Assembly: GCA_031409335.1 (NCBI GenBank)
Contig: JANNWY010000182.1
Location: forward strand, 1 to 48,130
Origin: Chthoniobacteraceae bacterium
GTDB taxonomy: Bacteria; Verrucomicrobiota; Verrucomicrobiia; Chthoniobacterales; Chthoniobacteraceae
DNA length: 48,130 nt
Direction: 5' to 3'
Of the stretch, positions 7,427 to 40,057 are shown piece after piece (position 1 is the first letter of the stretch; each line of letters opens with the position of its first letter). Below the pieces are notes generated by a model. That model saw nothing but the letters and a program-made list of their open reading frames with translations, did no database searches and was not told the DNA's origin. The position numbers were made by a program, and so were the translations under genes.

Positions 7427-8683
7427 ATGGCCACGACAACGACCGCCTTTGAAACGCCAGACACACTCGCAAAAGCCCAAGCCGGGCTCGAAAAATCCGG
7501 TTACGTAACGGATTTGCTGGGCGAAAAAATGGTGATCAACATGGGGCCGAGTCACCCGGCCACGCACGGTGTGCTGCGTCTGGTTTTGGAAATGGACGGC
7601 GAGATCATCACCAAGGCGACGCCCGACATCGGCTATCTGCATCGCGGCGACGAAAAGATCGCCGAGAACATGCACTACAACCAGTTCATCCCGTACACGG
7701 ACCGGCTGGATTACCTCGCGCCGCTCGCAAACAACGTCGCGTATGCGCTGGCCGTCGAGAAACTGATGGGGTGGACGTTGCCCCCGCGCGGGCAAGCAAT
7801 CCGCGTCCTCTGTTGTGAACTCGCCCGCATTAGTTCGCACCTGCTCGGCGTTGGCTGTTTCGCGATGGATTGTGGCGCGATGACGATCTTTCTCTACACC
7901 TTTACCGAGCGCGAGAAGATCTACAACCTCATCGAAATGCTCACTGGCGCGCGTTTCACCACGAGCTACACCCGCATTGGGGGAATGACCCGCGATTTGC
8001 CAGACGGCTTCACCAGCCAGCTTCGCGCCTTTATCGATCAACTCCCGGCCGCGATCGACGAGGTGGACGCCCTGATCTCGCGGAACCGCATCTTTGTCGA
8101 TCGCACGGAGGACATCGGGGCGATCACCAAGGAACAAGCCATCTCCTTTGGCCTCAGCGGCCCGAATCTTCGCGGTTGCGGCATTGATCACGATCTCCGC
8201 AAGAAACAGCCGTATCTCGGCTACGAGCAATATGATTTCGATGTGCCGATCGGCTCAAAGGGCGATTCTTACGATCGTTACTTCGTGCGGATGGAGGAAA
8301 TGCGGCAGTCAATGCGCATTCTGCATCAAGTGCTCGACACCCTGCCTGGCGGCCCGATCCACGTTCAGGATGCGAAGAACTACCCGCCGCCAAAGACAAC
8401 CGTGCTGACGAAGATGGAAGAGTTGATCCACCACTTTATCGTCCACACCGAAGGGATCGATGCTCCGCCCGGCGAAGTGTATTTCGGCGCGGAGAACCCC
8501 AAGGGTGAACTCGGCTTCTACATCCATTCGAAGGGCGGCGGGACACCCCACCGGATGAAAATTCGGGCTCCGAGCTTTGTGAATCTCAGTATTCTCAGCG
8601 CAATCCTTCCCGGTCACATGATGAGCGATGTGGTCGCCATTCTCGGATCGCTGGATTTTGTAATGGGCGAATGTGATCGCTAA
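7427..8683 (+). CDS. nuoD: NADH-quinone oxidoreductase subunit D
   Basis: NMGPSHPATHGVLRL, IGYLHRG.EK, DRLDY, GELG, C-terminal DFVMGECDR. Confidence 0.96.
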   Translation: MATTTTAFETPDTLAKAQAGLEKSGYVTDLLGEKMVINMGPSHPATHGVLRLVLEMDGEIITKATPDIGYLHRGDEKIAENMHYNQFIPYTDRLDYLAPLANNVAYALAVEKLMGWTLPPRGQAIRVLCCELARISSHLLGVGCFAMDCGAMTIFLYTFTEREKIYNLIEMLTGARFTTSYTRIGGMTRDLPDGFTSQLRAFIDQLPAAIDEVDALISRNRIFVDRTEDIGAITKEQAISFGLSGPNLRGCGIDHDLRKKQPYLGYEQYDFDVPIGSKGDSYDRYFVRMEEMRQSMRILHQVLDTLPGGPIHVQDAKNYPPPKTTVLTKMEELIHHFIVHTEGIDAPPGEVYFGAENPKGELGFYIHSKGGGTPHRMKIRAPSFVNLSILSAILPGHMMSDVVAILGSLDFVMGECDR

Positions 8684-26546: not shown

Positions 26547-29315
26547 ATGAAACTTTCCCACCTCCACTGGCTCGCCTTCGCAGCCTGCCTTTCCACCGGC
26601 CACGCGCAACTCGTCCGCCAGGCCAACACCACGCTCACCCTCCCCGCCAATCTCCCCGCCGCCACCGGCTACACCACGGAGAATGCCCTCGGCACACTCT
26701 CCTTTGCCGCACCGATGGTGACGGCGTATCCGGCGGGCGAGACGAACCGTCTCTTTGTCGCTGAACGCAGTGGGACGATTCAGTGCGTGAGCGCGCTGGG
26801 CACGACGCCGGTGAAATCAAGCTACCTCAATCTGACGAGTCTGCTGATCGCCGGTCAGACGCTGCGCACCGACGGGGAAAACGGATTTCTCAGTCTCGTA
26901 TTCCACCCGAATTTCGCTACGAACGGCACGTTTTTCGTCTATTTCAGCATCGATGTGGGCGGCGTGCTTTTTCAAAGGCTGCATCAAGTTTCCGTGACGA
27001 ATCCCTCGGCAAACACCGCGGTGATTTTTTCCCACAAGCCGCTGCTCACCGTCCTGGACCGTGACACGAATCACAACGGCGGGGACCTGCATTTCGGAGC
27101 CGACGGTTTTCTCTACCTAACGCTCGGCGATGAAGGTGGCGGCGGTGACAACCGCAACAACGCGCGCTTCATCAATCATCGCAATGACGCGACCGCGCGG
27201 CGTCCCGGATTCTGGGGGCAATTGCTGCGGCTCGCCGTCGAAGAGAACGCAAAAACCGCGCCTGGCATTTTCGCCGCGGGCGCGCTCGCGCCGAATGCGC
27301 ACACGCAAAACTCGGTCGCGTTTCCGAGCGCGCTGCACGGCAACTACCGCGTGCCGGCGGACAATCCCTTCATCGGCTACACGCTCTGGCACAGCGTTGC
27401 CATCCCGGCGGGCACGCTGCGGACGGAGATTTACGCGACAGGATTGCGCAATCCGTTTCGCTGGAATTTCGATCCGCCAACGGGGCGCATTTTCATCGGC
27501 GATGTCGGGCAGGGCATTTACGAGGAAATCAACATCGTCAAAAAGGGCGACGATCTCGGGTGGAGCTGGCGCGAAGGGCTGCATCAGTATTTCAGCCCAC
27601 CCGCGCCGACGACTCCGCCCGCGCCGCCCGTGGCGGGCAATCCGCCGGGAACGGGTTTCAGCCGCGTAGATCCGATCTACGAATACGATCACACGGCTGA
27701 CGGCAACGGCAACGACGCGGTGATTTCCGGCAGCTCGATCACCGGTGGCATCGTGTGTCGCGGGAGCCGGCTCACGGAACTTTACGGCACTTACATTTTT
27801 GCCGACTACAACTCGGGCTTCATCGCGGCCCTGACCGAGCAGGCGAACGGCACCTGGACCGGCGCGCGGCTCGCGACCGACAGCGGCATCGTCGATTTCG
27901 GAGTCGATCCGCGCAACGGCGACGTGATTTTTTGCGATCTGAATGCGGGCTCGGTGCGGCGGCTCGCGCGCTCCGGCACGACCGGTGCGAATCCGCCCGC
28001 GACGCTTTCGGCGACGGGCGCATTCTCGAATCTCGCGACGCTCACGCCGAATGCGGGCCTCGTGGATTACGAGCAGAACGTGCCGTTTTGGAGCGACTAC
28101 GCCACCAAGTCGCGCTGGTTCGCGATCAAGAATCTGACGGACACGGTGGGTTTTTCCGCGAACGGAAACTGGACGCTGCCGACGGGGATGGTGTGGGTGA
28201 AACATTTCGACATCGAGACGACACGCGGCGTGCCTGCGACGCGGCGGAGGCTGGAGACGCGCTTCCTCGTGAAGACGGCGACGGACGTTTACGGGCTCAG
28301 CTACAAATGGCGCCCGGACCAGTTGGAGGCTGATCTCGTCGCGGAGAACGGTCTCTCGGAACTCATCCCCGCGAGCAGTCCCGCCCAAATCTGGCGCTAC
28401 CCGAGCCGGAGCGAGTGCCGCGCGTGCCACACGGGCGTCGCGGGATTCGCGCTCAGCTTCAATACGCGGCAGATGAATAACGATCATGTCTTCGGCGCGC
28501 AGACGCTCAATCAAATCGCCGCATTGCGCGACGCGCAGACGAGCGGTGCGCTGCCCGCGAGCTATTTCACCGCCGGCACCGCGCCTGCGGTCACGAATAC
28601 GCTGCCGTTTTTGGCCGAGGCTGGGGATGGGACGAAGAGTTACGAATTCCGCGTGCGCTCCTACCTCTCGGTGAATTGCGTGCAATGCCACCAGCCCGGC
28701 GGCCCCGCGACGGGGAACTGGGACGCGCGCGTGACGACGCCGACCGACGCGGCGAATCTCATCAACGGCCTGCTCGTGAACAACGGCGGCGACACGGCGA
28801 ACCGCTTCGCCGTGCCGAACGACACTGCGCATTCGATGGTCCTCACGCGGCTGCAAGGCGCGGGTGCGCCGCGGATGCCGCCGTTCGGGTCGAACGAACT
28901 CGATCCCGTGGCCATCCAGCTCCTCACCGACTGGATCACACTCGAATTGCCCACCCGCGAAAGCCTCGCGCAATGGCAGACGCGCAATTTCGGCTCTCCC
29001 GCCCCGCTCACGGGCGACGCCGATTTCGACGGACAGACGAATGGATTCGAGTTCCTCACCGGCACCGATCCGCTCAATGCGAACGGCCGCTGGACGCTCT
29101 CGGCGCAGCTCGTAGGCGGAAACTACGAGGTCACTTTTCCACAAACGGAAAACCGCGCCGTGCTCGTCGAAACGAGTCTTGATCTGCAAACGTGGTCGCT
29201 GTGGGACGTGCCGGGGAATCAGCCAATGTTTACGTTTGAAGGCGCGATGCGCACCATCACGGGGTCGGCGAATGGCGATCAGCAATACTTCCGCGCGCGC
29301 TTGATCGAGCAGTAG
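26547..29315 (+). CDS. Secreted glucose/sorbosone dehydrogenase-like beta-propeller with c-type cytochrome domain
   Basis: [34 protein letters not shown] and CVQCH heme motifs; DADFDG.TN.FE...GTDP tail. Confidence 0.88.
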
Positions 29316-29325
29316 CATCCGCAAT

Positions 29326-29405
29326 GTGGCTTGCCGCTCCAGCGGCGAGCGGGGAAGGTGGCGGGCCTGCCGTTTGTCCCGCTCGCCGCTGGAGCGGCAA
29401 GCCAC
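29326..29405. repeat. Perfect 28-bp-arm palindrome (REP-like)
   Basis: gtggcttgccgctccagcggcgagcggg ... cccgctcgccgctggagcggcaagccac. Confidence 0.85.
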
Positions 29406-29422
29406 TTATACATTCCGCTGCC

Positions 29423-29986
29423 ATGCTTCTCGTCATCGATAACTACGACTCGTTCACGTACAACCTCGTCCAGTATTTCGGCGAACTCGGCGCGGACCCG
29501 CTCGTGAAGCGCAACGACGAAATCACGCTCGATGGAATCCGCGCGCTGAAACCCGAGCGCATCGTCATTTCCCCCGGCCCCTGCACGCCAAACGAAGCCG
29601 GCATCAGCAACGACGTGATCCGCACTTTTGGCGCGGGCACACCGATCCTCGGCGTGTGCCTCGGGCATCAGTGCATGGGCCAGGTTTTCGGCGGCGATGT
29701 CATCCGCGCGCCGCGGCTCATGCATGGGAAAACCTCGCCGATTTTGCACAATGGCGAGGGAGTTTTCGCCGGGCTGCCAAATCCGTTTGAAGCGACGCGC
29801 TACCATTCGCTCGTCGTGAAACGGGAGACATTTCCCACCGCGCTGGAGATCACCGCGGAGACGGCGGAGAAGGAAATCATGGGCCTGCGGCATCGCGAGT
29901 TTCCGATGCACGGCGTGCAGTTTCACCCCGAGTCGATCCTGACGCTGGAAGGGAAGAAGCTGCTCGGGAATTTCCTCGGTCTTTAG
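29423..29986 (+). CDS. trpG: Anthranilate/aminodeoxychorismate synthase component II
   Basis: [35 protein letters not shown]. Confidence 0.93.
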
Positions 29987-30009: not shown

Positions 30010-30425
30010 TTACATCAACTGATACGCGTCCACATCCACGGTGACGATGACGTCCTCGGGAAACGGCAGCTTGTCCAGCACACCGCGCAAATGCCGGCTC
30101 AGTTTCAAAATGGCCTTCGTCCGCAGCATGAGTTGGAAGCGGAAATTGCCGTGCGATTTTTCCAGTGGGGCGGGCGCGGGTTCGCTGAGGGTGGTGCCGG
30201 GGGGGGGGAGGGATTCGGCGAGGCGGCGGTGCAGGGTTTCGGTGGAGAAGCTGGCGCGGGCTTCGTGCGGGGAGCGGATGTGGATGATGATGAGATGCGT
30301 GAAGGGCGGGTAGTCCCACTGTTTGCGGAACTCGATTTCCTGCTCCCAGAAGCCCTCGAAATCGTGATGTCGCGCGAACTGAATCGCAGGACTGAACGGC
30401 GTGAAACTTTGCACGAAGACCTCGC
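30010..30425 (-). pseudogene. priA: Orphan duplicate of the priA 3' end (left direct repeat)
   Basis: Encodes EVFVQSFTPFSP...DVDAYQLM, nearly identical to the C-terminus of priA at 37135-37547; similarity stops abruptly after gaagacctcgc. Confidence 0.92.
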
Positions 30426-30760
30426 TCGCGAATTTGGCTGAGATCGACATGCCACTCGTCTTCCGCGTTTACGGCGACGGAGCGTGGGCGAAATCACCGT
30501 TCTCTGTCTCGCCTGACCGTACCGCGTTTTGATAGGAGGAAACGTGTCGCCAACCGCGCCTGCCACCGTGCAGCGCGGGGCGACGGTCCTCTGTGAGCAC
30601 GACACCGAAACCGAAAAAGCCCGGAACTGCCCGCAAGAAAGCGCCGCCCCGTGCGGACGCCGACAGGGTTCCCGAGAAAGGCTTGTTTTCCAGAGGGCGA
30701 AATGGCGGAAGCCGAAGTGCGCGCTTGCGTTTGGCAAGACAACGCGGTGCCATTCGCGCC

Positions 30761-33700
30761 ATGCCCGAGCCTGCGGAGACCTTTCGCTTCGATGTCGCCT
30801 TCTCCTTCGCTGGCCCGCATCGCGAGAAGGTGCGGACTATCGCCGAACTGGTCGCTGCGAAGCTTGGTCGTGAGCGGGTGTTCTATGACGAGTGGTACGA
30901 ACACGAAATCCTCGGCGACGAAACGGGCGCGCTGCTGCAACGCTTCTATCACGAGCGAAGTCTCATGGTCGTCGCGGACCTCTCGGACGAATACGCTGGG
31001 CGTCCATGGTGCCGGGCTGAAGCAAGCGCGATCCGGGCGCTTCGTTTTGATTTGGATCCCGCGCGCGATGAGACCGGCCGCCTTCGTCTGCTCAATGTGA
31101 AATTGGGTGATGGAAGCGTGCCGGGAGTTTTCACGACCACGGCCTATCTCGAGGGCATCGCCAAGACCGCCGAGCAATGCGCCGAACTCATCCTCAAGCG
31201 CCACGCCCTGCTTGTGCAGCGCATGAGCGCGCCAGCGCTTCTCGCAAGCGAATCTCAAGCACCTGCGCCTCATGCAGCGCGCGGAATGGACATTGGGAAG
31301 GCTCCCGCCAACACGACATTGCCCCTCGAATGGCTTCGCCGCACCGGCGTTTATGTTGCCCACTTTACCGCCTATTTCATCGGGGGCGCTGCGCTCGGGG
31401 AGGTGGTTAAAAAAATCTTTCTATCTGGCGGCGGCGACACTATGCCCGGCCCCGCCATCTGGTTTGCTGCCGCCGCGCTCGCCCTTTCGCTCTTCTTCCT
31501 CCTCGCCTTCAACATCATCCCCCCCATCCTTCATGCACGCGAGAAGCGGCTCAAGCCCGTTCCCGACGACCGCATCGACCGGGAATACTTCACCACTAAG
31601 CCGCGCGAACATGACCCGCACGGCTTCTTCGCCCACGGCTACGATGCCTTCCTGGAGTGGGCCGCGGTCCCGGTGGCTTCCATCCTGCACCTCACCGGGC
31701 TCTCCGGTTCCGGCAAATCGTCCCTCCTCAGCGCCTTCCTCGCCCCGCGACTCGCGGAGGCGAAGCCGCGCACGCATCTCGTCATCCTGCGCTCCTATAC
31801 CGACCCGCTCGTGGCCATGAAAGAGGCGCTCGTGCAGTTCTGGAAGAAGAAGCCCGACGACTACGACTCGCTGCCTCCGCTCGAAGCGCTCCGCCGTGCC
31901 GCCGCCAGGCTCCCCGCCGGGGAAAGACTGCTCGTTGCGTTCGACCAGTTTGAGGAGTTCTTCATCCTGCGCGCCACCGCCACCGAGGGCACCGCAGGCG
32001 GCGCGCCGCTCATCGTCCCCATTGCGGACCTGGCACCACTGCGCGAGTTTTTCAACGACTTCCGCGCAGAACCTCCGCATAACGCGACTCTGCTTCTTTC
32101 GTACCGAGAGGACCACCGCGGTCTCATGGAGCCGCTAGGGCTGCCGACGCGGCGCGAAGGCGAAGACTGGCGCTCCGTCGAGCCGCTGGGTTTCGCCGAG
32201 GCGGCAGACTTCCTCGGCAAATGTCCCGGTCTCCCCATTCCGGAGGAGCGGATGAGCAGTGTCCTACGTGAGGCCGCCCGGCAAGAAGGGGGCCACGTCG
32301 TCATGCGACCCATCGTGGCCAACATCCTCGGCATCGTCCTCGCCCGCATGGCCGGCCATCCCACGCTCTGGCGCCGGTCGGGCGACCTACTGCGCAGCTA
32401 CGTGCGCGACTGCCTCGCGGGTCCATTGGAAAAGGAGCGCGCCGCCGCCTTGCGCGAGCTGCTCACCGATTTCCACACCGCCCGGCCTCGCGCCGTTGAA
32501 GAGATCGCCGGCAAGACCGGCCTCGCCCCCTCGACGCTTAACGATCAGTTCGGCCATCTCGAGCTCGCCGGCCTCGTCCGCTGCCTGAATGACGAGGAAG
32601 GCACCCCCGCCCGCCGCGTCTGGCAGATAGCGCACGACTTCATCGCCACCCTCACCGAGCGCGTCCTCGATGCCATGCACCGCACCCTCTGGCACGCCGT
32701 CAAGCCGTGGCTCGGTCCGGCCTCTTTTGCGCTTTGGTTGCTCGTCGGTCTCGGCGCTTGGCCTTGGGTGGAAAAGCATCGTGCCATCGCCGAACTTGCC
32801 AATGTGGGGCTGAGTTGGAACGAAAAGGAGCATGAAGTCTCTGTCAGCGATTGGGGACAGGAGCATCTTCGATCTCTTGATGGAACTCAGCGAGCGCTTC
32901 GGCACCTTCGCCCCAGGACGCTCACTCTCATTGGCTGCCGCGCCTTGCACGATGTACATGGCCTCAGCGGACTAACTTCCTTAGAACGGCTCGACTTTAG
33001 CTTCTGCGACGCCTTGCAGAACGTCGATGGCCTTGCAGGGTTGAGTTCTCTTCTGGCGCTCAACCTTAGCCAATGCTCGAAATTGGAGAGTGTGGATGGT
33101 CTCACGGGGTTGAATTCCCTTTTGGCGCTCGACCTTAGCAACTGCTCGGCATTAAAGAGTGTGGATTTCCTGAACGAGCTGACCTCCCTACGGTTGCTTA
33201 AACTCATCCGCTGTTCAGCCTTGGAAAATGTGGATGTCCTCAAGACGCTGACATCCCTTCAGTTGCTCTACCTCAGCCGGTGCTCGGCCTTGAAAAGTGT
33301 AGATATATTCAAGAGGATGACTTTGCTCCAGACGTTAGATCTCACAGATTGCGACGCCTTGCAGAATGTGAATGGCCTCGAGAATCTGATTTCTCTCCAG
33401 GTGCTCGACCTCAGCGAATGCGACACCCTACAGAATGTGGATGATCTCAAGAGATTGACTTCGCTCAAAGCGCTCAACCTCAAAGGCTGTGACGCCTTGG
33501 GGAACGTGAATGGGATCGAGAATCTGACTTCCCTCCAAGTGCTCGACCTCAGCAACTGTGGCGCCTTACAGAATATCGCTGGCCTTGAGAAGCTATCTTC
33601 TCTCCGGTCCCTTGATCTCAGTTCCTGCCGCAAATTAAAGAATGTCGATGACCTCCAGGGCCTCACTTCGCTAGGTTTGCTCAAACTCGAAGACTGCACT

Positions 33701-34111
33701 GTTCTTCGAAATGTCGATATGCTTAGGGGACTGACTTCCCTGCGAGGGCTTGATCTTAGCGGCTGCAACGCCTTACTGGATGTGCATGGTCTTCAGGGCC
33801 TGACTTCCCTCCGGGCGCTTGATCTGCACAACTGTGGTGCATTGCAGGATATCAATGGCCTCAAGGGACTGGAGAAGTTAGAATGGCTTTCTCTTTTCGG
33901 TGACCAGAGGATTCCCTTGGAGTCGTCCACCATGCTCGGCAAGAGCTTGCCTAAATGCCGGATCATTATCCGCTCCGAGGATGCATCAAATAGCCCTATC
34001 CACCTAATGTATATCAAAGAAATCGCGGAGCCGTTCTTTCCACCACAGCAATTCCTGCGCGATTTTGCCTATGCAATGCGGCGCTCTCTTGGCAAGAGCA
34101 AGTCCAACTGA
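30761..34111 (+). CDS. TIR-2TM-STAND NTPase (nSTAND1-like)-TM-LRR protein (alternative GTG start 30593)
   Basis: TIR FDVAFSFAG..R, VFYDEW, WCRAE; Walker A GLSGSGKS; Walker B LLVAFDQFEEFF; IAHD; TM; ~15 LRRs. Confidence 0.88.
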   Translation: MPEPAETFRFDVAFSFAGPHREKVRTIAELVAAKLGRERVFYDEWYEHEILGDETGALLQRFYHERSLMVVADLSDEYAGRPWCRAEASAIRALRFDLDPARDETGRLRLLNVKLGDGSVPGVFTTTAYLEGIAKTAEQCAELILKRHALLVQRMSAPALLASESQAPAPHAARGMDIGKAPANTTLPLEWLRRTGVYVAHFTAYFIGGAALGEVVKKIFLSGGGDTMPGPAIWFAAAALALSLFFLLAFNIIPPILHAREKRLKPVPDDRIDREYFTTKPREHDPHGFFAHGYDAFLEWAAVPVASILHLTGLSGSGKSSLLSAFLAPRLAEAKPRTHLVILRSYTDPLVAMKEALVQFWKKKPDDYDSLPPLEALRRAAARLPAGERLLVAFDQFEEFFILRATATEGTAGGAPLIVPIADLAPLREFFNDFRAEPPHNATLLLSYREDHRGLMEPLGLPTRREGEDWRSVEPLGFAEAADFLGKCPGLPIPEERMSSVLREAARQEGGHVVMRPIVANILGIVLARMAGHPTLWRRSGDLLRSYVRDCLAGPLEKERAAALRELLTDFHTARPRAVEEIAGKTGLAPSTLNDQFGHLELAGLVRCLNDEEGTPARRVWQIAHDFIATLTERVLDAMHRTLWHAVKPWLGPASFALWLLVGLGAWPWVEKHRAIAELANVGLSWNEKEHEVSVSDWGQEHLRSLDGTQRALRHLRPRTLTLIGCRALHDVHGLSGLTSLERLDFSFCDALQNVDGLAGLSSLLALNLSQCSKLESVDGLTGLNSLLALDLSNCSALKSVDFLNELTSLRLLKLIRCSALENVDVLKTLTSLQLLYLSRCSALKSVDIFKRMTLLQTLDLTDCDALQNVNGLENLISLQVLDLSECDTLQNVDDLKRLTSLKALNLKGCDALGNVNGIENLTSLQVLDLSNCGALQNIAGLEKLSSLRSLDLSSCRKLKNVDDLQGLTSLGLLKLEDCTVLRNVDMLRGLTSLRGLDLSGCNALLDVHGLQGLTSLRALDLHNCGALQDINGLKGLEKLEWLSLFGDQRIPLESSTMLGKSLPKCRIIIRSEDASNSPIHLMYIKEIAEPFFPPQQFLRDFAYAMRRSLGKSKSN
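32915..33905 (+). repeat. Coding tandem array of 23-aa leucine-rich repeats (69-bp period)
   Basis: 14 Cys-containing units of consensus L.gLtSL..LdLs.C.aL.nvdg plus a final unit without Cys. Confidence 0.9.
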
Positions 34112-34140
34112 AAGTTTTAACTGTAACTAGAGGCAACGCC

Positions 34141-34637
34141 GTGCTGTGGCAGGATACCCTGAAAATCGAGCCGACCCTCAGCGGGAAGATGCTCACTGCG
34201 GCGAGCGACCTTCCGCCGGAGAGCGTCTGGGGCATCAGCATCAAGGCCGTGGGCGGGTTCCTGACCGGCTTCAAGGCCAATGCTACGGGCGAACGCGTGG
34301 CTGGCGACGACAAAGCGCCCGACATCATCGAGGCGGCGGCGCTCAACGCGAACCTGCTGGCGCTGCGTCCGCGCGACATCGTGGTGCTGCGCGGCTACCG
34401 GCTCGCTTTCGATCCCAGCAAGCCGGATGAAGGGGTGTATCTCGATCCCGTGTCGGGTGGCGCGCGGTGCGCGTGGCCGTGGCCAATCTCCGCAAGAAAG
34501 GGGAGAAGGAGACGGAGTTCCAATGGCCCGAAGGGCTGCCGGCCAATACCCAGTATCGGGTGCGTCTCGAATGCCGTCGGCGCGGCGGCGGCATCCTGCG
34601 CCGCGACCGCTGGGATACGCCGGTGAAGACGCCGTAA
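34141..34637 (+). pseudogene. 5'-truncated, frameshifted HU-like/DUF4469 (Ig-fold) DNA-binding protein remnant
   Basis: LRGYRLAFDPSKPDEGVYL; after a -1 shift near 34463 continues AVRVAV...FQWPEGLPANTQYRVRLECRRRGGGILRRDRWDTPVKTP*. Confidence 0.55.
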
Positions 34638-34752
34638 GGGGGTGCGGTCGGCGACCGCAGGGGTTTGTGGTAAGGGACCGCCGCGGTTTGCGGTCATGCG
34701 CCACAAGGGGCTGCGGTAAGGCACAGCGAGGGATTGCGGTCGCTGGGAGCGA
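34638..34752. repeat. Five degenerate 23-bp tandem units with core TGCGGT-N5-ACCGCA
   Basis: TG(C/T)GGT at 34643, 34666, 34689, 34712 and 34735: exact 23-bp spacing. Confidence 0.8.
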
Positions 34753-34757
34753 TTGCT

Positions 34758-37130
34758 ATGGCTTTACCAATGCCAACGAAAAAGCCAATGCGGGAGGAAG
34801 AGGCGCTACGCAGGATTCAAGAGGTGCGTAGCAAGCCAGAGGCGATGCTTGACCTTGTTGGGCTTGGTTTGAATGTGCTGCCAAAGTCTATCGGCCAGTT
34901 GGCGCGACTGCGATGGCTTTACCTCGATGACAATCAACTGCACACGCTGCCGGACTTTATCGGCCAGTTGACGCAACTGCAAGCGCTCGGTCTCAGCGAC
35001 AATCAATTAAGTGCACTGCCGGAGTGGATGCGCCGTCTCACACAGCTCAAGATGCTCTACTTGCACGGCAACGATGCGCTCGGCATCCCACCGGAAATCC
35101 TCGGGCCAACTTGGCAGGAGGTTGGAGGCGACCGAACGACACCCGCCCGCCCGCAGGACATCATCGATTACTACTTCAAGACCCGCGAGGCGGCGCGTCC
35201 GCTCAATGAAGTGAAGCTCCTGCTCGTGGGACGCGGCGGGGCGGGCAAAAGCTCGATCCGCGACCGGCTGGTTCACGATAGCTTCGTTCCCGGCAAGAAG
35301 GAGACGCCGGGGATCGACATCGCGCATTGGCCGCTCGACTGCGGCGGCGAGCGCGTCCACGTCCACCTCTGGGATTTCGCCGGGCAGGAGATCACCCATG
35401 CCACCCACCAGTTCTTCCTTACCGAGCGCAGCGTCTATGTGCTGGTGCTCGATGCGCGCGCCGATACGCAGGAGGCCGACGCCGAATACTGGCTGCGGCT
35501 GATCGCGGCCTTTGGCAAGGAGTCGCCGATCCTCGTGCTGCTCAATAAGTTTGATGAGAAGCCCTTTGCCATCGACGAACATCTGCTCAGCGAGCGCCAC
35601 CCGGCGATCCGCACTTTCATCCCGACAGACTGCAAGACGAAGCGCGGCCTTTCGGAACTGCGCACCGTGCTCACCAAGCTGCTGACGGTGTGGGAGCCGG
35701 TCCACGAGCTATTCCCTGCCGCCTGGGCGCGCGCGAAGGAAAATTACAGCGAGCCGAAGCAGCCCTACATCGCCTTCAGCGCCTTTCGCACGAAGTGCGC
35801 CGAGTGTGGCATCGCCGATGAAGCGGAGCAGGAGCGGCTCGCGCGCATCCTGCATGCGCTCGGCATTATCCTGCACTATGGGGACGATCCGCGGCTGCGG
35901 CACAATGCGGTGCTCGATCCGCATTGGGTGACGAATGGCGTCTATAAGCTGCTCCGGCTCAAGGAAGGCCCCGCGAGCGACGGCACGCTGACGGTGGAGG
36001 AAGCGGCGCGCGCTCTGCCGGGGGAGCCGCGCGAGATGGTGGAATACCTCATCGGCCTCATGCGCCGCTTCGAGCTCTGCTTTGCCGTCGATGCCGACGA
36101 ACAGCGCTGGCTGGTGCCGCAATTGCTCAGCCGTTTCCAGCCCGCGCTCGAAGCCGGGTGGCAGACGGCCGAGGCAACGCGGCTGCGATACCGCTACGAT
36201 GTGCTGACCGAGGGGCTGCTGGCGCGCTTCATCGTGCGCACGCATCCGCTGAGCGAAGGGCAGCCGCGCTGGCGTTACGGCGTGGTGCTCGAAATGGAAG
36301 GCGCCCGCGCGCTCGTCCGCGCCGACCGCACACGCAACGAAGTGACCGTCGCCGCGATCGGCGACCCCGAGGCGCGGTTGCGGCTGGTGAAGGTGGTGCG
36401 CGAGCATTTTGCGCACATCAACGCGGAGTTGCCGGGGCTCAACGCGCGGGAACAGCTCGAACCGGAGGGACATCCCGGCGCTTTCAAGGCCGTGAAGGTG
36501 CTCGAAGCGGACGAACGCAAAGGCGGTGAATCGACGATCGAGACCGACGACGGCACGATCGCGATCGACAAGACGCGCGAACTCAACCGCATCTCCGCCC
36601 CGGCGGCGCGCGATCCGGCGCAGCCGCGGGTGAGGCTGTTCGTGAGCTATTCGCACAAGAACGCCCGGTTGTTGGATGTCTTCCGCACCAACCTCGACCT
36701 GCTAAAGGCGGACGGCCTCGCAGACTCGTGGACCGACCGGCTGATTCCGGTGTCTGCCGAGTGGGACGATGAGATTCGCCGCGAGATCGAGGAGGCCGAC
36801 ATCATCGTGCTACTGGTGAGCACGGCTTTCCTCGCTTCCGGCTACATTCGCAGTGTCGAACTATTGCGCGCCATCCAACGCCGCGTCGCCCGCGAGGCGG
36901 AGATCGCCATCGTGCTTCTCGAACCCAATGTGCAGTGGAAAGGCGAGCGCACCATCCACGACAAGGCCACCGGCAAGGATGTGAAGTTCAAACTGGATGC
37001 CTGGCAGGCGACGCTGCCCGATGGCCGCTGCGTGCGCGATTTTTCCACCCAGCAGATCGGCTTCAACGCCGTCGAAGCCGCGCTGCGCAAGCTGATCGCG
37101 AGCGTGCTGGCAAAGCGGCGGTCCGCGTAG
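34758..37130 (+). CDS. Roco protein: LRR-Roc GTPase-COR-TIR (alternative start 34788)
   Basis: EEALRRI and LP..IGQL LRRs; GRGGAGKS, WDFAGQE, NKFD; COR LDPHWVTNGVY; TIR LFVSYSH..EADIIVLLVS..FLAS.YI..VE. Confidence 0.92.
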   Translation: MALPMPTKKPMREEEALRRIQEVRSKPEAMLDLVGLGLNVLPKSIGQLARLRWLYLDDNQLHTLPDFIGQLTQLQALGLSDNQLSALPEWMRRLTQLKMLYLHGNDALGIPPEILGPTWQEVGGDRTTPARPQDIIDYYFKTREAARPLNEVKLLLVGRGGAGKSSIRDRLVHDSFVPGKKETPGIDIAHWPLDCGGERVHVHLWDFAGQEITHATHQFFLTERSVYVLVLDARADTQEADAEYWLRLIAAFGKESPILVLLNKFDEKPFAIDEHLLSERHPAIRTFIPTDCKTKRGLSELRTVLTKLLTVWEPVHELFPAAWARAKENYSEPKQPYIAFSAFRTKCAECGIADEAEQERLARILHALGIILHYGDDPRLRHNAVLDPHWVTNGVYKLLRLKEGPASDGTLTVEEAARALPGEPREMVEYLIGLMRRFELCFAVDADEQRWLVPQLLSRFQPALEAGWQTAEATRLRYRYDVLTEGLLARFIVRTHPLSEGQPRWRYGVVLEMEGARALVRADRTRNEVTVAAIGDPEARLRLVKVVREHFAHINAELPGLNAREQLEPEGHPGAFKAVKVLEADERKGGESTIETDDGTIAIDKTRELNRISAPAARDPAQPRVRLFVSYSHKNARLLDVFRTNLDLLKADGLADSWTDRLIPVSAEWDDEIRREIEEADIIVLLVSTAFLASGYIRSVELLRAIQRRVAREAEIAIVLLEPNVQWKGERTIHDKATGKDVKFKLDAWQATLPDGRCVRDFSTQQIGFNAVEAALRKLIASVLAKRRSA

Positions 37131-37134
37131 CCGC

Positions 37135-39405
37135 TCACATGAGCTGATAGGCATCCACGTCCACCGTCACCACGACATCCTCGGGGAATGGCAGCTTGTC
37201 GAGCACGGCACGGAGGTGGCGGCTGAGTTTCAGGATCGCACGGGTGCGGAGCATGAGTTGGAAGCGGAAGTTGCCGTGGGATTTTTCCAGTGGGGCGGGC
37301 GCGGGTTCGCTGAGGGTGGTGCCGGGCGGGAGGGATTCGGCGAGGCGGCGGTGCAGGGTTTCGGTGGAAAAACTGGCGCGGGCCTCGTGCGGGGAGCGGA
37401 TGTGGATGATGATGAGATGGGTGAAGGGCGGGTAGTCCCACTGTTTGCGGAACTCGATTTCCTGTTCCCAAAATCCCTCGAAATCGTGATGCCGCGCGAA
37501 CTGGATGGCGGGGCTGAACGGCGTGAAACTTTGCACGAAGACCTCGCCTTCCACGTCGCCGCGGCCGGCGCGTCCGGCGACTTGGGTGAGGAGCTGGAAG
37601 GTGCGCTCGCCGGCGCGGAAATCGGGGAGGTGCAGGGCGAGGTCGGCGTTGATGATTCCGACGAGGGTGACGTTGGGAAAGTGCAGGCCTTTCGCGATCA
37701 TTTGCGTGCCGACGAGGATGTCGATCTTGCCGGTGCGAAAGGCGCCGAGCGTTTCGCGATAGGAATCGCGCCGCGTCATCGCGTCGGCGTCCATGCGTTT
37801 CACGACGGCTTTGGGAAAGAGTTTGCTGACGGCGTCCTCGACTTTTTCGGTGCCCGTGCCGCTGTAGCGGATCGCGGGATCTTTGCACTCGGGACACTTC
37901 GATGGCGCGACGGCTGCGTAGCCGCAGATGTGGCAGACGATGCGCGCGGCGGTGCGGTGGAAGGTGAGCGAGACGGAGCAGTTCGGACACGTGCAGACAT
38001 GGCCGCAGGTCGGGCAGATGAGCGAGGTCGAAAAGCCGCGGCGGTTCAGGAATAGGATCGTCTGCTCCTTCTTTTCGAGCCGGACGTTGATCGCCGTGAT
38101 GAGTTTCTCCGAAAGGATCGCGGACCTTTTCACCGACTCCATCCGCAGGTCGATGATGCGGATGAGCGGCATCTTTTTGTCGTCCACGCGCAGCTTCATG
38201 TTCAGCAGTTCGTATTTGCCGAGCGTCGCGTTGTGGTAGCTCTCCATCGACGGCGTCGCGCTGCCGAGCAGGCACGCGCATTTCTCCATGCTCGCGCGCA
38301 GCACCGCGATGTCGCGCGCGTGGTAGCGCGGCGTTTCCTCCTGCTTGTAGGAATTCTCGTGCTCTTCATCGACAACGATGAGCCCGAGATTTCCGCACGG
38401 CGCAAAGATCGCCGACCGCGCGCCGATGACGATACGCGCTCGGCCATCGCGAATCTTATGCCACTCATCGTGCCGCTCGCCTTCGCTGAGATGCGAGTGC
38501 AGCACGGCGACTTCGTGTTGCGTGGCCGCGAAGCGCGATTTGAAACGCTCGACGGTCTGCGGCGTGAGCGAAATTTCCGGCACGAGCATGATCGCCGACT
38601 GCCCGCGCGCGACGACGAGCTGGATCGCTTGCAGGTAAATCTCCGTCTTCCCGCTGCCGGTCACGCCGTGGAGGAGCATCGGGCGCGGAGTCGCATGGGT
38701 CCCATCGCTCCCATGAGTCCGATGGGACGAAGGGGACTGATGGGACCAATGCCCGATCGCCGCGCGCACACGCTCGAACACGGCGATTTGCTCTTCGTTC
38801 AAAGCCAGCGGAGCTGCCGCGACGAATGTCTCCCGCTCGAACGGATCGCGCTCCACTTTTTCATCCTCGGAAATGAGCAGCCCCTTTTTCACCAGCGCAT
38901 TGATGACTTGATGATTCGCATCGCACTGCTGCGCGAGTTCGGCAACGGCGACCGCCTTTCCCGCCGCGGCGAGAAACTCGACCACGCCCGCTTGCAGCGG
39001 CGCTTTCCCGCGCAGCCCCTCGATTTCCTCCGCGCCGACTTCCCGCGCGAGCCGCGCAAAGAGCTGCTTCTTATGCCCGATCTGCGCCTTGCGAATCACA
39101 TTCGGCAGCACACTCCGCAACGCCGCCTCCAGCGGGCAGCAGTAGTAATCCGCGATCCATTTCCCAAGCTGGATGAGCAGCGGACTCAGGATCGGTTCCG
39201 CGCTCACCACCTCCGCGATCGGCTTCACGCCGCGCGCATCGGTCGTGTCGCGCAGCTCCAAAATCGTCCCCAGCATCGTCCGCGTCCGCACCGGCACGCG
39301 CACGCGCGAGCCGACCTGCAATTGCGCCGCCACCGGCTCGGGAAGCTCGTAATCAAAGGCATTCCCGCCGGAGTCATCGACCATCACGAGGGCGAAACGA
39401 GGCAT
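37135..39405 (-). CDS. priA: Primosomal protein N' (replication restart helicase)
   Basis: GVTGSGKT, LVPEISLT, DEEH, four CxxC pairs, GTQMIAKG, QVAGRAGR. Confidence 0.97.
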   Translation of the reverse strand: MPRFALVMVDDSGGNAFDYELPEPVAAQLQVGSRVRVPVRTRTMLGTILELRDTTDARGVKPIAEVVSAEPILSPLLIQLGKWIADYYCCPLEAALRSVLPNVIRKAQIGHKKQLFARLAREVGAEEIEGLRGKAPLQAGVVEFLAAAGKAVAVAELAQQCDANHQVINALVKKGLLISEDEKVERDPFERETFVAAAPLALNEEQIAVFERVRAAIGHWSHQSPSSHRTHGSDGTHATPRPMLLHGVTGSGKTEIYLQAIQLVVARGQSAIMLVPEISLTPQTVERFKSRFAATQHEVAVLHSHLSEGERHDEWHKIRDGRARIVIGARSAIFAPCGNLGLIVVDEEHENSYKQEETPRYHARDIAVLRASMEKCACLLGSATPSMESYHNATLGKYELLNMKLRVDDKKMPLIRIIDLRMESVKRSAILSEKLITAINVRLEKKEQTILFLNRRGFSTSLICPTCGHVCTCPNCSVSLTFHRTAARIVCHICGYAAVAPSKCPECKDPAIRYSGTGTEKVEDAVSKLFPKAVVKRMDADAMTRRDSYRETLGAFRTGKIDILVGTQMIAKGLHFPNVTLVGIINADLALHLPDFRAGERTFQLLTQVAGRAGRGDVEGEVFVQSFTPFSPAIQFARHHDFEGFWEQEIEFRKQWDYPPFTHLIIIHIRSPHEARASFSTETLHRRLAESLPPGTTLSEPAPAPLEKSHGNFRFQLMLRTRAILKLSRHLRAVLDKLPFPEDVVVTVDVDAYQLM
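38694..38752. repeat. Short-repeat palindromic insert, in frame within priA
   Basis: tcccat x2 facing atggga x2; encodes low-complexity HWSHQSPSSHRTHGSDGTH just before Walker A. Confidence 0.6.
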
Positions 39406-39484: not shown

Positions 39485-40057
39485 ATGATCGCCGTCCTCG
39501 AAGACCCCGCCATCCGCGCCCGTCTCACCATGACGACGGTCGAGCAATATCACCGAATGTATGAACTCGGAGTGATCGCGGAAAACGTGGAACTGATTCG
39601 CGGCAGCCTCATCGAAAAAATGTCCCAATCTCCCCTGCACGCTTCGATCGTGGAATTGCTTCGCGAACACTTGGTGAACCTGCTGGTCGGGAAATCGATC
39701 GTGCGGCAGGAAAAGCCGCTCACGCTCGCCGATTCCGAACCCGAACCCGATTTAGCCGTCGTACATGGCACCCGACGCGAATTTCTTTCCGGTCATCCGA
39801 CGACGGCGGAACTGGTCGTCGAGGTTTCCGTGAGCAGTGAACGCCTTGATCGCGCGAAGCTGGAAATCTACGCCGAGGCCGGGGTGCGCGAATGCTGGCT
39901 GCTGCTGGCCGAGGAGCGGATCATCGAACGGCATACCGATCCGCAAGCAGGCGCCTATCGGCAGGTGGAACGCGCGACGTTTCCAGCAACGCTGGAGAGC
40001 ACGGTCATCCCCGGTTTGAAGATCCCGCCGAATGGGTTGTTCCCGGAAACACCATGA
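39485..40057 (+). CDS. Uma2-family PD-(D/E)xK endonuclease
   Basis: TVEQYHRM...VELIRG, SEPEPDLAVV, LVVEVS, DR.K..YAEAGV. Confidence 0.9.
   Translation: MIAVLEDPAIRARLTMTTVEQYHRMYELGVIAENVELIRGSLIEKMSQSPLHASIVELLREHLVNLLVGKSIVRQEKPLTLADSEPEPDLAVVHGTRREFLSGHPTTAELVVEVSVSSERLDRAKLEIYAEAGVRECWLLLAEERIIERHTDPQAGAYRQVERATFPATLESTVIPGLKIPPNGLFPETP

Follow-up and report, generated by a model that had tools for sequence, protein, structure and literature searches.

A duplicated priA tail around recombinase-free cargo with TIR-domain genes, a probable scar of one-sided homologous recombination

The locus described here raises the question of how the end of a housekeeping gene came to be present twice, on either side of several other genes, with no integrase between the copies. 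The window, that is the whole stretch of DNA that was analysed, comprises 48,130 nt of a Chthoniobacteraceae genome. It contains an intact priA (37135..39402, minus strand), the sole full copy in the genome, whose tail now in use takes up the last 413 nt of the gene (37135..37547, minus strand). An orphan priA 3' tail of 416 nt (30010..30425, minus strand) runs in frame to a TAA stop and holds a PriA_C domain. The two tails lie in direct orientation, 6.71 kb apart, and are 89% identical; an earlier note on this DNA had placed the last ~415 bp of priA twice around a cargo, and both its coordinates and the content are borne out. A run of 34 bp identical in both tails (30392..30425, minus strand) ends at the cargo junction, and another identical run, of 47 bp, is found further inside. 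No stable hairpin was detected at the 34-bp junction run (z +1.1), and promoter and terminator scans gave results at chance level. On its other side the orphan faces a trpG-like glutamine amidotransferase gene (29423..29986, plus strand; Pfam GATase, the trpG label being taken from the earlier note), which is convergent with it, 23 bp separating their stops.

The arrangement was checked on contigs of public sequencing runs; the adjacencies were reproduced at flank depth. In runs X1 and X2, both from one study that may be the source, contigs with 0-2 differences link the orphan with trpG and the priA tail with the cargo. The depth of these contigs was 10.6-11.1 for the cargo vs 10.9-12.7 for the flanks in X1, and 6.4-7.2 vs 5.7-9.2 in X2. 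At 30425 the cargo contig enters the 34-bp core by 30 letters only, against a bar of 31 letters for counting the junction, while a single contig of X1 holds the central 270 bp of both tail copies; phasing across the repeat therefore rests on contig depth rather than on spanning reads. Among the matches shown for runs X4, X6 and X7, which hold small shares, no contig joins trpG to a priA tail and 30426-30695 is uncovered, which proves nothing about an empty site. A chimeric assembly of two strains could be suspected in a genome of 326 contigs with 3% contamination, where no contig spans the whole repeat. It is nevertheless the least credible of the explanations considered, with next to no probability, given that the left junction finds no repeat partner in the rest of the genome, that two runs give all adjacencies at near-equal depth and that equivalent structures exist in independent genomes.

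The cargo opens with a left end (30426..30760, plus strand) made up of a 34-codon open stretch (30428-30532), which resembles a cut-off gene end, and the region presumed to hold the promoter of the first cargo gene. No real match to the open stretch was found in 150 family genomes or Pfam; the only family hit, in genome G144 (E 0.005), was rejected, as it falls where an unrelated helicase-like frame begins. The first cargo gene (30761..34111, plus strand; frame open from 30593) encodes a protein of 1116 aa with a weak TIR_2 match, hydrophobic segment(s), an nSTAND1 NTPase, a winged helix and an LRR array built of 69-bp units. Its TIR part and its STAND-LRR part match separate protein sets, and the STAND part was matched in 1 of 150 family genomes. 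A DUF4469-like remnant follows (34141..34637, plus strand), called as a feature with high confidence and with no Pfam match; it is probably frameshifted near 34464, where the contig of a related strain has one base more. The second TIR gene encodes a Roco protein (34734..37130, plus strand) of the order LRR-Roc-COR-TIR_2, and its stop is 4 bp from that of priA. Here the TIR_2 match is above the Pfam cut-off (E 2.5e-10), and the C-terminal TIR domain also matches PADLOC ThsB (E 1e-20). The earlier description of the cargo as TIR-protein genes therefore holds for the Roco gene, the TIR_2 match of the first gene being sub-threshold (E 1.4e-4, 22.7 bits vs a Pfam cut-off of 28).

Among the anti-phage systems described in PADLOC 2.0 there was no family for the first cargo protein and only a ThsB-type TIR domain for the Roco protein; a ThsA-type partner was not found among the islet genes, and a search of genome contigs for relatives of the Roco protein gave no match. 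In one paper, PMC7159879, the cargo terms occur in the reference list only. Bacterial STAND/NLR-like receptors with TIR effectors (Avs and related) are known, as are prokaryotic Roco proteins, and the cargo proteins resemble both in combining a TIR effector, an NTPase and a repeat sensor in modular fashion. Unlike the Avs-like receptors, the first cargo protein has no PADLOC match and brings together TIR, membrane segment(s), nSTAND1 and LRR. The two are predicted to act as TIR-effector receptors, plausibly with an anti-phage role.

Comparison of the two tails gave 46 substitutions in 40 codons, of which 36 are synonymous, three non-synonymous (R/K, A/G and V/I) and one is the stop codon (TGA vs TAA); the orphan also has a 3-nt insertion (an extra Pro) inside a 10-base homopolymer. 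This recount of codons agrees with the few amino-acid changes, extra Pro, different stop and mostly synonymous divergence reported earlier. If the extra Pro were an assembly error, the shorter form would be expected at this place; run X1 does have the shorter form only, on the contig common to both copies (depth 16.5), a result that bubble collapse would also give. The synonymous share of the codon changes is 36/39 vs 23% expected under neutrality (p 6e-20). Divergence that is almost only synonymous argues that both tails evolved as working priA ends. The earlier proposal of an insertion that restored priA with a tail from another lineage is supported. The same signal would be expected if the orphan were a working stand-alone gene for the PriA C-terminal domain, selected after a local duplication, and an ATG at 30450 does begin a frame of 146 aa that covers the PriA_C domain in full. 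We consider this very improbable, however, since the 56-158 bp priA orphans of relatives are too short to encode the domain, some of them being frameshifted or having several amino-acid changes, and since an equal synonymous bias is seen at the lepA, argF and pdhC orphans. All 13 codon changes of the lepA tail are synonymous, and the pooled tail codons amount to 211 synonymous to 118 non-synonymous, a count that includes one non-tail row (nirK, where an internal segment was aligned).

The islet gave no match to a tRNA, an Rfam family, a Pfam integrase or a Pfam transposase, in agreement with the earlier statement that it lacks an integrase. The genome has 18 PF00589 and 3 PF00239 six-frame matches, all on contigs other than that of the islet. 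None of the 19 orphan-tail intervals of the genome that were examined contains a tyrosine or serine recombinase, and no integrase or transposase family was found among 74 called proteins from orphan-tail loci, the transposase check covering called genes only and the gene caller missing some low-GC genes. No paper was found that brings priA together with an integration site, a genomic island and attB.

Site-specific elements that restore a protein-coding target include phage 21 and e14 at icd, SXT at prfC, which is a known ICE target, and CIMEs. The scars of the priA type resemble them in that the gene end is replaced and the displaced fragment lies in direct repeat, and differ in having no recombinase, no fixed start and many unrelated target genes. 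Within this genome, direct downstream tail copies were found for 17 of 2532 single-copy gene ends, vs 3 direct upstream copies and 1 and 2 inverted ones; downstream vs upstream becomes 12 vs 1 once 5 and 2 cases of repeat proteins or paralogues are removed. The gene ends with a downstream orphan tail include lepA, argF, dxr and ubiD. In 19 hand-picked events the tails measure 43-412 bp at 80-95% identity, with junction runs of 2-72 nt and no common core at the junctions by eye. On contig C325 an argF orphan meets a lepA orphan head to head, with exactly 6 bp common to the two and found in both parent genes, which points to one event of homology plus microhomology and is not explained by an att site.

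Across the family, orphan priA tails on the same contig were found in 3 of 131 genomes, vs 1 of 134 for lepA (Fisher p 0.37), and in 3 of 135 for the control gene nuoD among the matches listed, 9 weak matches being left out. The suggestion that the priA tail is a special hotspot is thus not upheld: nuoD has an equal rate and many like scars exist in the genome, of which priA is one instance and not a dedicated site. Orphan priA tails with variable cargo in relatives had been anticipated and do occur, surrounding PIN/AbrB, HicA, DUF6883/DUF4926 or AAA-ATPase genes, with cargo down to 0.5-0.7 kb. The codon at which all of them were expected to start is not shared: measured from the gene end, the orphan priA tails of this genome and of relatives are 413, about 158, 110, 105, 92, 66 and 56 nt long. 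The crossover position across these orphans is not fixed, and later trimming could blur a fixed site; the lepA orphan of G092, with an internal deletion of about 400 bp, indicates that orphans are trimmed later, so that the varied starts need not all be primary.

A phage, ICE or IME that entered the 3' end of priA carrying a replacement tail, with its integrase and part of the displaced tail subsequently lost by deletion, or that integrated in trans, would draw on this trimming, on the 34 identical bp at the junction and on the 18 tyrosine-recombinase matches, which could act in trans. It would also draw on a head duplication at prfC and on G119, which has two priA orphans, the first of them starting at nearly the same base as the orphan of G115. 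Such an element would, however, require a separate lost integrase at each of about 19 loci, none of them kept; the small cargo of relatives, the double orphan of lepA and argF, which misfits a single att site, and the rate at nuoD all speak against it, and the priA tail was found in IMG/VR neither by protein nor by degenerate pattern, a weak negative. We regard site-specific integration as unlikely, and the form in trans put forward earlier is not supported, given the differing starts and the IMG/VR result.

The two priA tails and their recombinase-free cargo are, in our assessment, probably the scar of a one-sided homologous recombination completed by an illegitimate joint. DNA of a close relative would have paired with the resident priA and carried in the donor's priA end together with the genes that follow it, and the far end of the donor DNA would have been joined, through a short stretch of matching bases, at a position 413 bp within the resident priA. 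Tail duplication is the outcome expected to survive, since priA and the adjacent gene both remain intact. The process would have depended on RecA and on uptake by transformation; ComEC and DprA genes are present in the genome. Homology-facilitated illegitimate recombination, one of the routes named earlier, is thereby supported as the likely one. It would share with the priA islet a one-sided homologous anchor and an illegitimate other end, and no integrase takes part in either; its joints are short and GC-rich, and the 6 bp shared at lepA/argF are in keeping with a joint of short microhomology. Experiments on it have reportedly mostly given insertion with deletion of resident DNA, whereas at priA the joint lies within the anchor gene, whose tail is thereby duplicated. 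A one-sided anchor at priA would be consistent with the structure and the synonymous divergence.

The tail in use is a mosaic, with 15 sites differing from the orphan in its first 291 nt and 30 in its last 117 nt, and the breakpoint is sharp, near nt 296 (0/500 permutations). Under one-sided recombination the donor would have been about 5% divergent over the first 291 nt, and one of the two tails would carry an older, more distant last 117 nt. The breakpoint would also suit a donor tail and cargo that were circularised by an illegitimate joint and then entered by a single RecA crossover in the tail, or a tandem duplication of the interval that was trimmed, both copies then being mosaics of donor and recipient. 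These routes yield an identical final structure and would account for informative sites mixed between segments and outgroups, and the 105-bp terminal repeats of a contig in G010 are as in a tandem or circular unit. They need two rare steps instead of one and seem to us unlikely. With present data they are inseparable from the one-sided route, the two differing only in a donor-donor vs a donor-recipient joint.

Which tail is the resident one was addressed through neighbours and informative sites. The orphan at 30010-30425 may be the displaced resident tail, as the earlier note had it in calling this the original tail left beside trpG; sites shared with the closest congener speak for that claim, and those of the next congener and the lack of any priA-trpG adjacency among congeners against it. 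At informative priA sites the closest congener agrees more often with the orphan (distal part, 20 vs 10 sites, p 0.10), the next-closest one with the gene tail. Relatives are also closer to the gene tail than to the orphan at ABC-F (3 of 4 loci), mqnA, glgE, ubiD and, for G004, priA, which decay of the orphan could also give. In trees of the 117- and 291-nt tail segments the orphan groups with G003 (support 77 and 98), the segments being too short to fix direction. The empty priA-trpG site that relatives had been expected to show was not found: no congener has priA beside trpG, and of the loci inspected (30 short and 20 longer ones from genomes, 80 from metagenomes) none has trpG close to priA. 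The gene downstream of trpG differs in each of three congeners, and that downstream of priA in each of two. Elsewhere, the dxr-rseP site is empty in 3 of 4 congeners, the dxr orphan here still sitting 18 bp ahead of rseP and agreeing with G002 at 9 vs 4 sites, and the mqnA-pfkB site is empty in G004. Searches for empty sites of ubiD, ABC-F, pdhC, glgE, argF and cotH gave other neighbours or no match, and no lepA-argF adjacency was seen in the lepA loci of 20 relatives.

Several observations weigh against the one-sided route: the absence of an empty priA-trpG site from the loci searched, the mixed direction of the tail matches, the trimmed orphans and the want of a lepA-argF adjacency in relatives. 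The literature, in the portions used here, also describes homology-facilitated illegitimate recombination as rare, which counts against it.

The scar itself is of a known kind; its interest is in the genome-wide scale and in the cargo. Insertion with long target duplication is reportedly the subject of a study by Nobusato et al. (2000). In the excerpted text of Furuta, Abe and Kobayashi 2010 (PMC2853133), long, variable and imperfect direct repeats surround an insert of <20 kb, with repeat pairs such as 417/423, 384/412 and 368/393 in Table 3. The same excerpts state that the repeats, of over 30 bp by definition, often cover the start or stop site of a gene without disrupting it, that most cases are from naturally competent species, that cases were defined by restriction-modification cargo and that double-strand breaks are suspected. 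Set against these excerpts, the priA islet is alike in size (6.71 kb), in its direct repeats (413/416 bp) and in having no other mobile-element genes; it differs in having no restriction-modification genes, its cargo being TIR/STAND/LRR, DUF4469-like and Roco and that of sister events mixed, and in a synonymous divergence that speaks for a gene copy brought by a donor and against a fresh target duplication. Displacement of an old 3' part by an incoming 3' end and its downstream genes is described, in the sections available of Kirchberger et al. 2017 (PMC5361080), for rhs, cdi and T6SS effector-immunity loci, and is ascribed there to homology-facilitated illegitimate recombination. As far as those sections go, serial orphans are a common trait (two at priA in G119, two at pdhC here), and the swapped tail there is a variable toxin, whereas the tail exchanged here belongs to a conserved housekeeping gene and acts as anchor only.

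It is possible, and we suggest it tentatively, that gene-end capture without an integrase is a main entry route into the chromosome for toxin-antitoxin, restriction and NLR-like genes in this family, that a displaced tail is present at about 1-2% of the ends of housekeeping genes and that orphans form a genome-wide searchable record of uptake; the pair of TIR-membrane-STAND-LRR (a plant-TNL-like domain order) and LRR-Roc-COR-TIR proteins might then be an undescribed anti-phage system. Island finders based on integrases or tRNAs would miss such inserts. If displaced tails mark recent uptake (roughly 1 in 150 gene ends here), a simple scan of each tail versus its downstream sequence would list newly acquired genes, many of them defence-like, and would yield natural cases of a recombination route known mainly from laboratory transformation, of which the lepA/argF joint is an unusually clean footprint. 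Some of the sister inserts carry GmrSD, C5 methylase, PstI-type or Uma2 genes, and the ABC-F insert has a truncated SPFH gene at its joint.

The terminal 413 nt of priA (37135-37547, minus strand) are present again in direct orientation as a 416-nt orphan tail (30010-30425) next to trpG, which confirms the duplication described in the earlier note. The two copies differ by 46 substitutions over 40 codons, of which 36 changed synonymously, 3 non-synonymously and one is the stop, and the orphan has one additional Pro codon, within a 10-base homopolymer; the mostly synonymous divergence, three replacements, extra Pro and changed stop had all been correctly read. Since the synonymous share is 36/39, against 23% under neutral change (p 6e-20), both tails evolved as functional priA ends; this suggests descent from two lineages rather than a local duplicate left to decay. 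A stand-alone PriA domain gene is an unlikely reading of the orphan; full-length priA is single copy in the genome (7.9 Mb, 326 contigs). Divergence between the tails jumps from 15/291 nt to 30/117 nt at a breakpoint (0/500 permutations), so that one tail would itself be a mosaic, the product of an earlier exchange. Upstream, priA is adjoined by a divergent Uma2-family nuclease gene (39485-40057), a neighbour also found in the related genome G029. A perfect 28-bp inverted repeat with a 24-nt spacer lies 5' of trpG (29326-29405); it is a REP-like element with related copies on at least 10 further contigs (55 BLAST rows).

The window is a complete contig, C182. Judging by PEP-CTERM and PATR proteins and by the names of homologues, the source is probably a Verrucomicrobium of the Chthoniobacter group. 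Two public sequencing runs of one study (X1 and X2) contain 94-95% of the sampled words, and one of them may be the source of the assembly. Their contigs connect trpG with the orphan and the cargo with the priA tail, with 0-2 differences, and cargo depth is near flank depth. The cargo contig reaches 30 letters into the 34-bp identical run at the orphan/cargo junction (30392-30425), one letter below the 31 required, and X1 has the central part of the repeat merged into a single contig. Both adjacencies are supported at flank-like depth, and the phase across the repeat, from trpG through the cargo to the priA body, we infer from depth. A chimeric assembly, which the earlier note had listed as a refuting outcome, is unlikely. 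Runs of a second study contained cargo-gene pieces at ~92-99% identity, and the junction was absent from them.

The genome was scanned for similar scars using our own gene calls and a paralogue filter. Among 2532 gene tails, a direct copy was found downstream in 17 cases and upstream in 3, and inverted copies in 1 and 2, respectively; for 2655 gene heads, copies lay upstream in 7 and downstream in 3. Without repeat-protein and paralogue cases the tail counts, downstream vs upstream, were 12 vs 1 (p 0.003). From three scans, 19 events were chosen by hand, including priA, lepA, argF, pdhC (twice), ubiD, an ABC-F gene, mqnA, dxr and glgE, with tails of 43-412 bp, 80-95% identity and junction runs of 2-72 nt. 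No core common to the 19 junctions was seen by eye. No integrase or transposase family was present among 74 called proteins from the event loci, and all 18 tyrosine-recombinase and 3 resolvase matches fell outside the event intervals, the nearest 30 kb from lepA. The cargo includes defence-type genes (GmrSD, antitoxin, C5 methylase, PstI-type nuclease, Uma2) and is not solely defence, since autotransporter-like, ABC-transporter and kinase genes also occur. In several events (L033, L031, L056, L061, L064) 0-25 bp separate the last cargo gene's stop codon from the start of the orphan; selection, trimming at a later time or some property of the joint could explain this. At pdhC (L061, G000:C212:77285-93029) there are two orphan tails: the first follows a Uma2 gene (0.7 kb), the second an additional 15 kb that holds kinase, WG-repeat and ECF sigma genes; this is serial insertion. 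Heads are duplicated as well: the first 60 nt of prfC (56845) recur at 100% identity 2.7 kb upstream of it, with an autotransporter-like gene between the copies (L054, G000:C170:54054-54113), a head rather than a tail duplication, and a 162-bp head copy (94%; L067, C301:27168-27329) lies upstream of a gene (28214-29101) whose start we take to read like cas1.

Contig C325 reads lepA, cargo, argF orphan, lepA orphan, cargo, argF. Here the orphans meet head to head and share 6 bp that both parent genes also have at this point (L060, G000:C325:61673-61932); with a different cargo on either side, this is the genome's clearest microhomology joint. A single event would explain both orphans: a relative's DNA covering part of the homologous interval would have entered by a homology-driven crossover at one end and been joined by microhomology at the other. 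The absence of lepA-argF adjacency from 20 relatives' lepA loci counts against this reading, and the donor must then have been very close. Elsewhere, the ABC-F insert terminates in a cut-off SPFH gene, and the mqnA-pfkB site is empty in the relative G004. The dxr orphan lies 18 bp ahead of rseP, and dxr immediately precedes rseP in 3/4 congeners; the relative G002 agrees with the dxr orphan at 9 sites and with the dxr gene at 4. ComEC and DprA are encoded in the genome. Among distal priA tail sites, the relative G003 agrees with the orphan at 20 and with the priA tail at 10 (p 0.10), whereas G004 and G028 lean toward the priA tail, and several sister loci likewise favour the gene tail. The proposal that the original tail was left beside trpG is on balance likely. 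A donor fragment that circularised and then entered by a single crossover is a possible alternative to one-sided homologous recombination with an illegitimate joint; its product is identical, and the two are inseparable here.

Among the 131 family genomes in which a priA tail was identified, three (G096, G010 and, with two, G119) have same-contig priA orphans; in G115 the orphan is on a different contig, and G100 has a 92-bp priA tail at a locus without the priA body. Among 80 metagenome loci, of which 36 had 3 kb of downstream sequence available, one carried a 56-bp priA orphan and another a 28-bp match. Cargo at relatives' orphans comprises a PIN/AbrB pair, a HicA pair, DUF6883/DUF4926 and an AAA ATPase. 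Relatives show the variable cargo and orphan tails that the earlier note proposed to look for, but orphan start points vary rather than sharing one codon. No empty priA-trpG site was found among the relatives' loci compared: no trpG lay near priA in any relative or metagenome locus tested, and congeners have differing genes downstream of both. Other relatives have a gene just 3' of priA with no detectable orphan tail: a nucleoside-deoxyribosyltransferase-like gene (L036:3029-3919) and a TIR/SEFIR gene (L046:4446-5996).

As a control, a query with the final 39 residues of lepA found one same-contig orphan among 134 genomes. With nuoD, picked as a second control because this genome has no nuoD orphan, there were three among 135, confirmed as repeats of 94-177 bp and 92-97% identity flanking ~1 kb of cargo. 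The priA rate is not distinguishable from these, and the suggested hotspot is unsupported. In the window, nuoD (7427-8683) is located outside any nuo operon. Site-specific integration by a trans-acting element, also raised earlier, or by one that has since decayed is possible in that orphans are trimmed after insertion, as the ~400-bp internal deletion in a lepA orphan behind a PIN-type pair indicates (L159, G092:C58:99136-100291). It would, however, require many lost integrases; start points vary, an IMG/VR search returned no priA tail, and a literature search found no description of priA as an attB site. The att-site idea, like the hotspot, is unsupported.

The scar at priA is real and a clean case of a type already known. 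Inserts with long duplications, variable and imperfect, that reach ~420 bp, often cross a start or stop site and occur mostly in competent species are described by Furuta et al. 2010 (PMC2853133); as defined there, that class has restriction-modification cargo, whereas the priA islet has none. Kirchberger et al. 2017 (PMC5361080) attribute orphan 3' ends at T6SS and rhs loci to homology-facilitated illegitimate recombination, a process described in PMC2884548 and PMC6382021. Distinctive here are the non-restriction cargo and the genome-wide and family-wide scale.

The cargo consists of three plus-strand genes, convergent with priA. As the earlier note observed, no integrase or transposase was found within the islet, nor a tRNA or Rfam family. 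Its GC content is 0.62 (flanks 0.63), except for the LRR array at 0.52. The first gene (30761-34111) encodes a 1116-aa protein with a TIR_2 match below threshold, nSTAND1 NTPase, winged helix and LRR array, an order resembling plant TNLs with membrane segment(s) after the TIR-like part. Hydropathy indicates one clear membrane segment ahead of the NTPase; four of five homologues checked have three and the remaining one two. Of its 42 homologues (self left out), 15 align solely with the N-terminal TIR region (~first 150-190 residues) and 27 solely with the rest of the protein, which makes it a modular fusion; the TIR and STAND-LRR modules match different protein sets. PADLOC gave no match for it, its STAND part was found in 1/150 family genomes, and its LRR part is without cover in a related strain's contigs. 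The middle frame is similar to DUF4469 proteins (language-model features, score 0.92) and looks frameshifted relative to a related strain. The third, a 798-aa LRR-Roc-COR-TIR frame whose TIR matches the ThsB model, has its stop codon 4 bp away from that of priA. Another LRR-Roc-COR gene, which shares 40% identity and has a TIR-like end in a different frame (L058, G000:C302:350-5600), sits just past another orphan tail, from an FGGY kinase gene, and a third Roco fragment is on contig C117.
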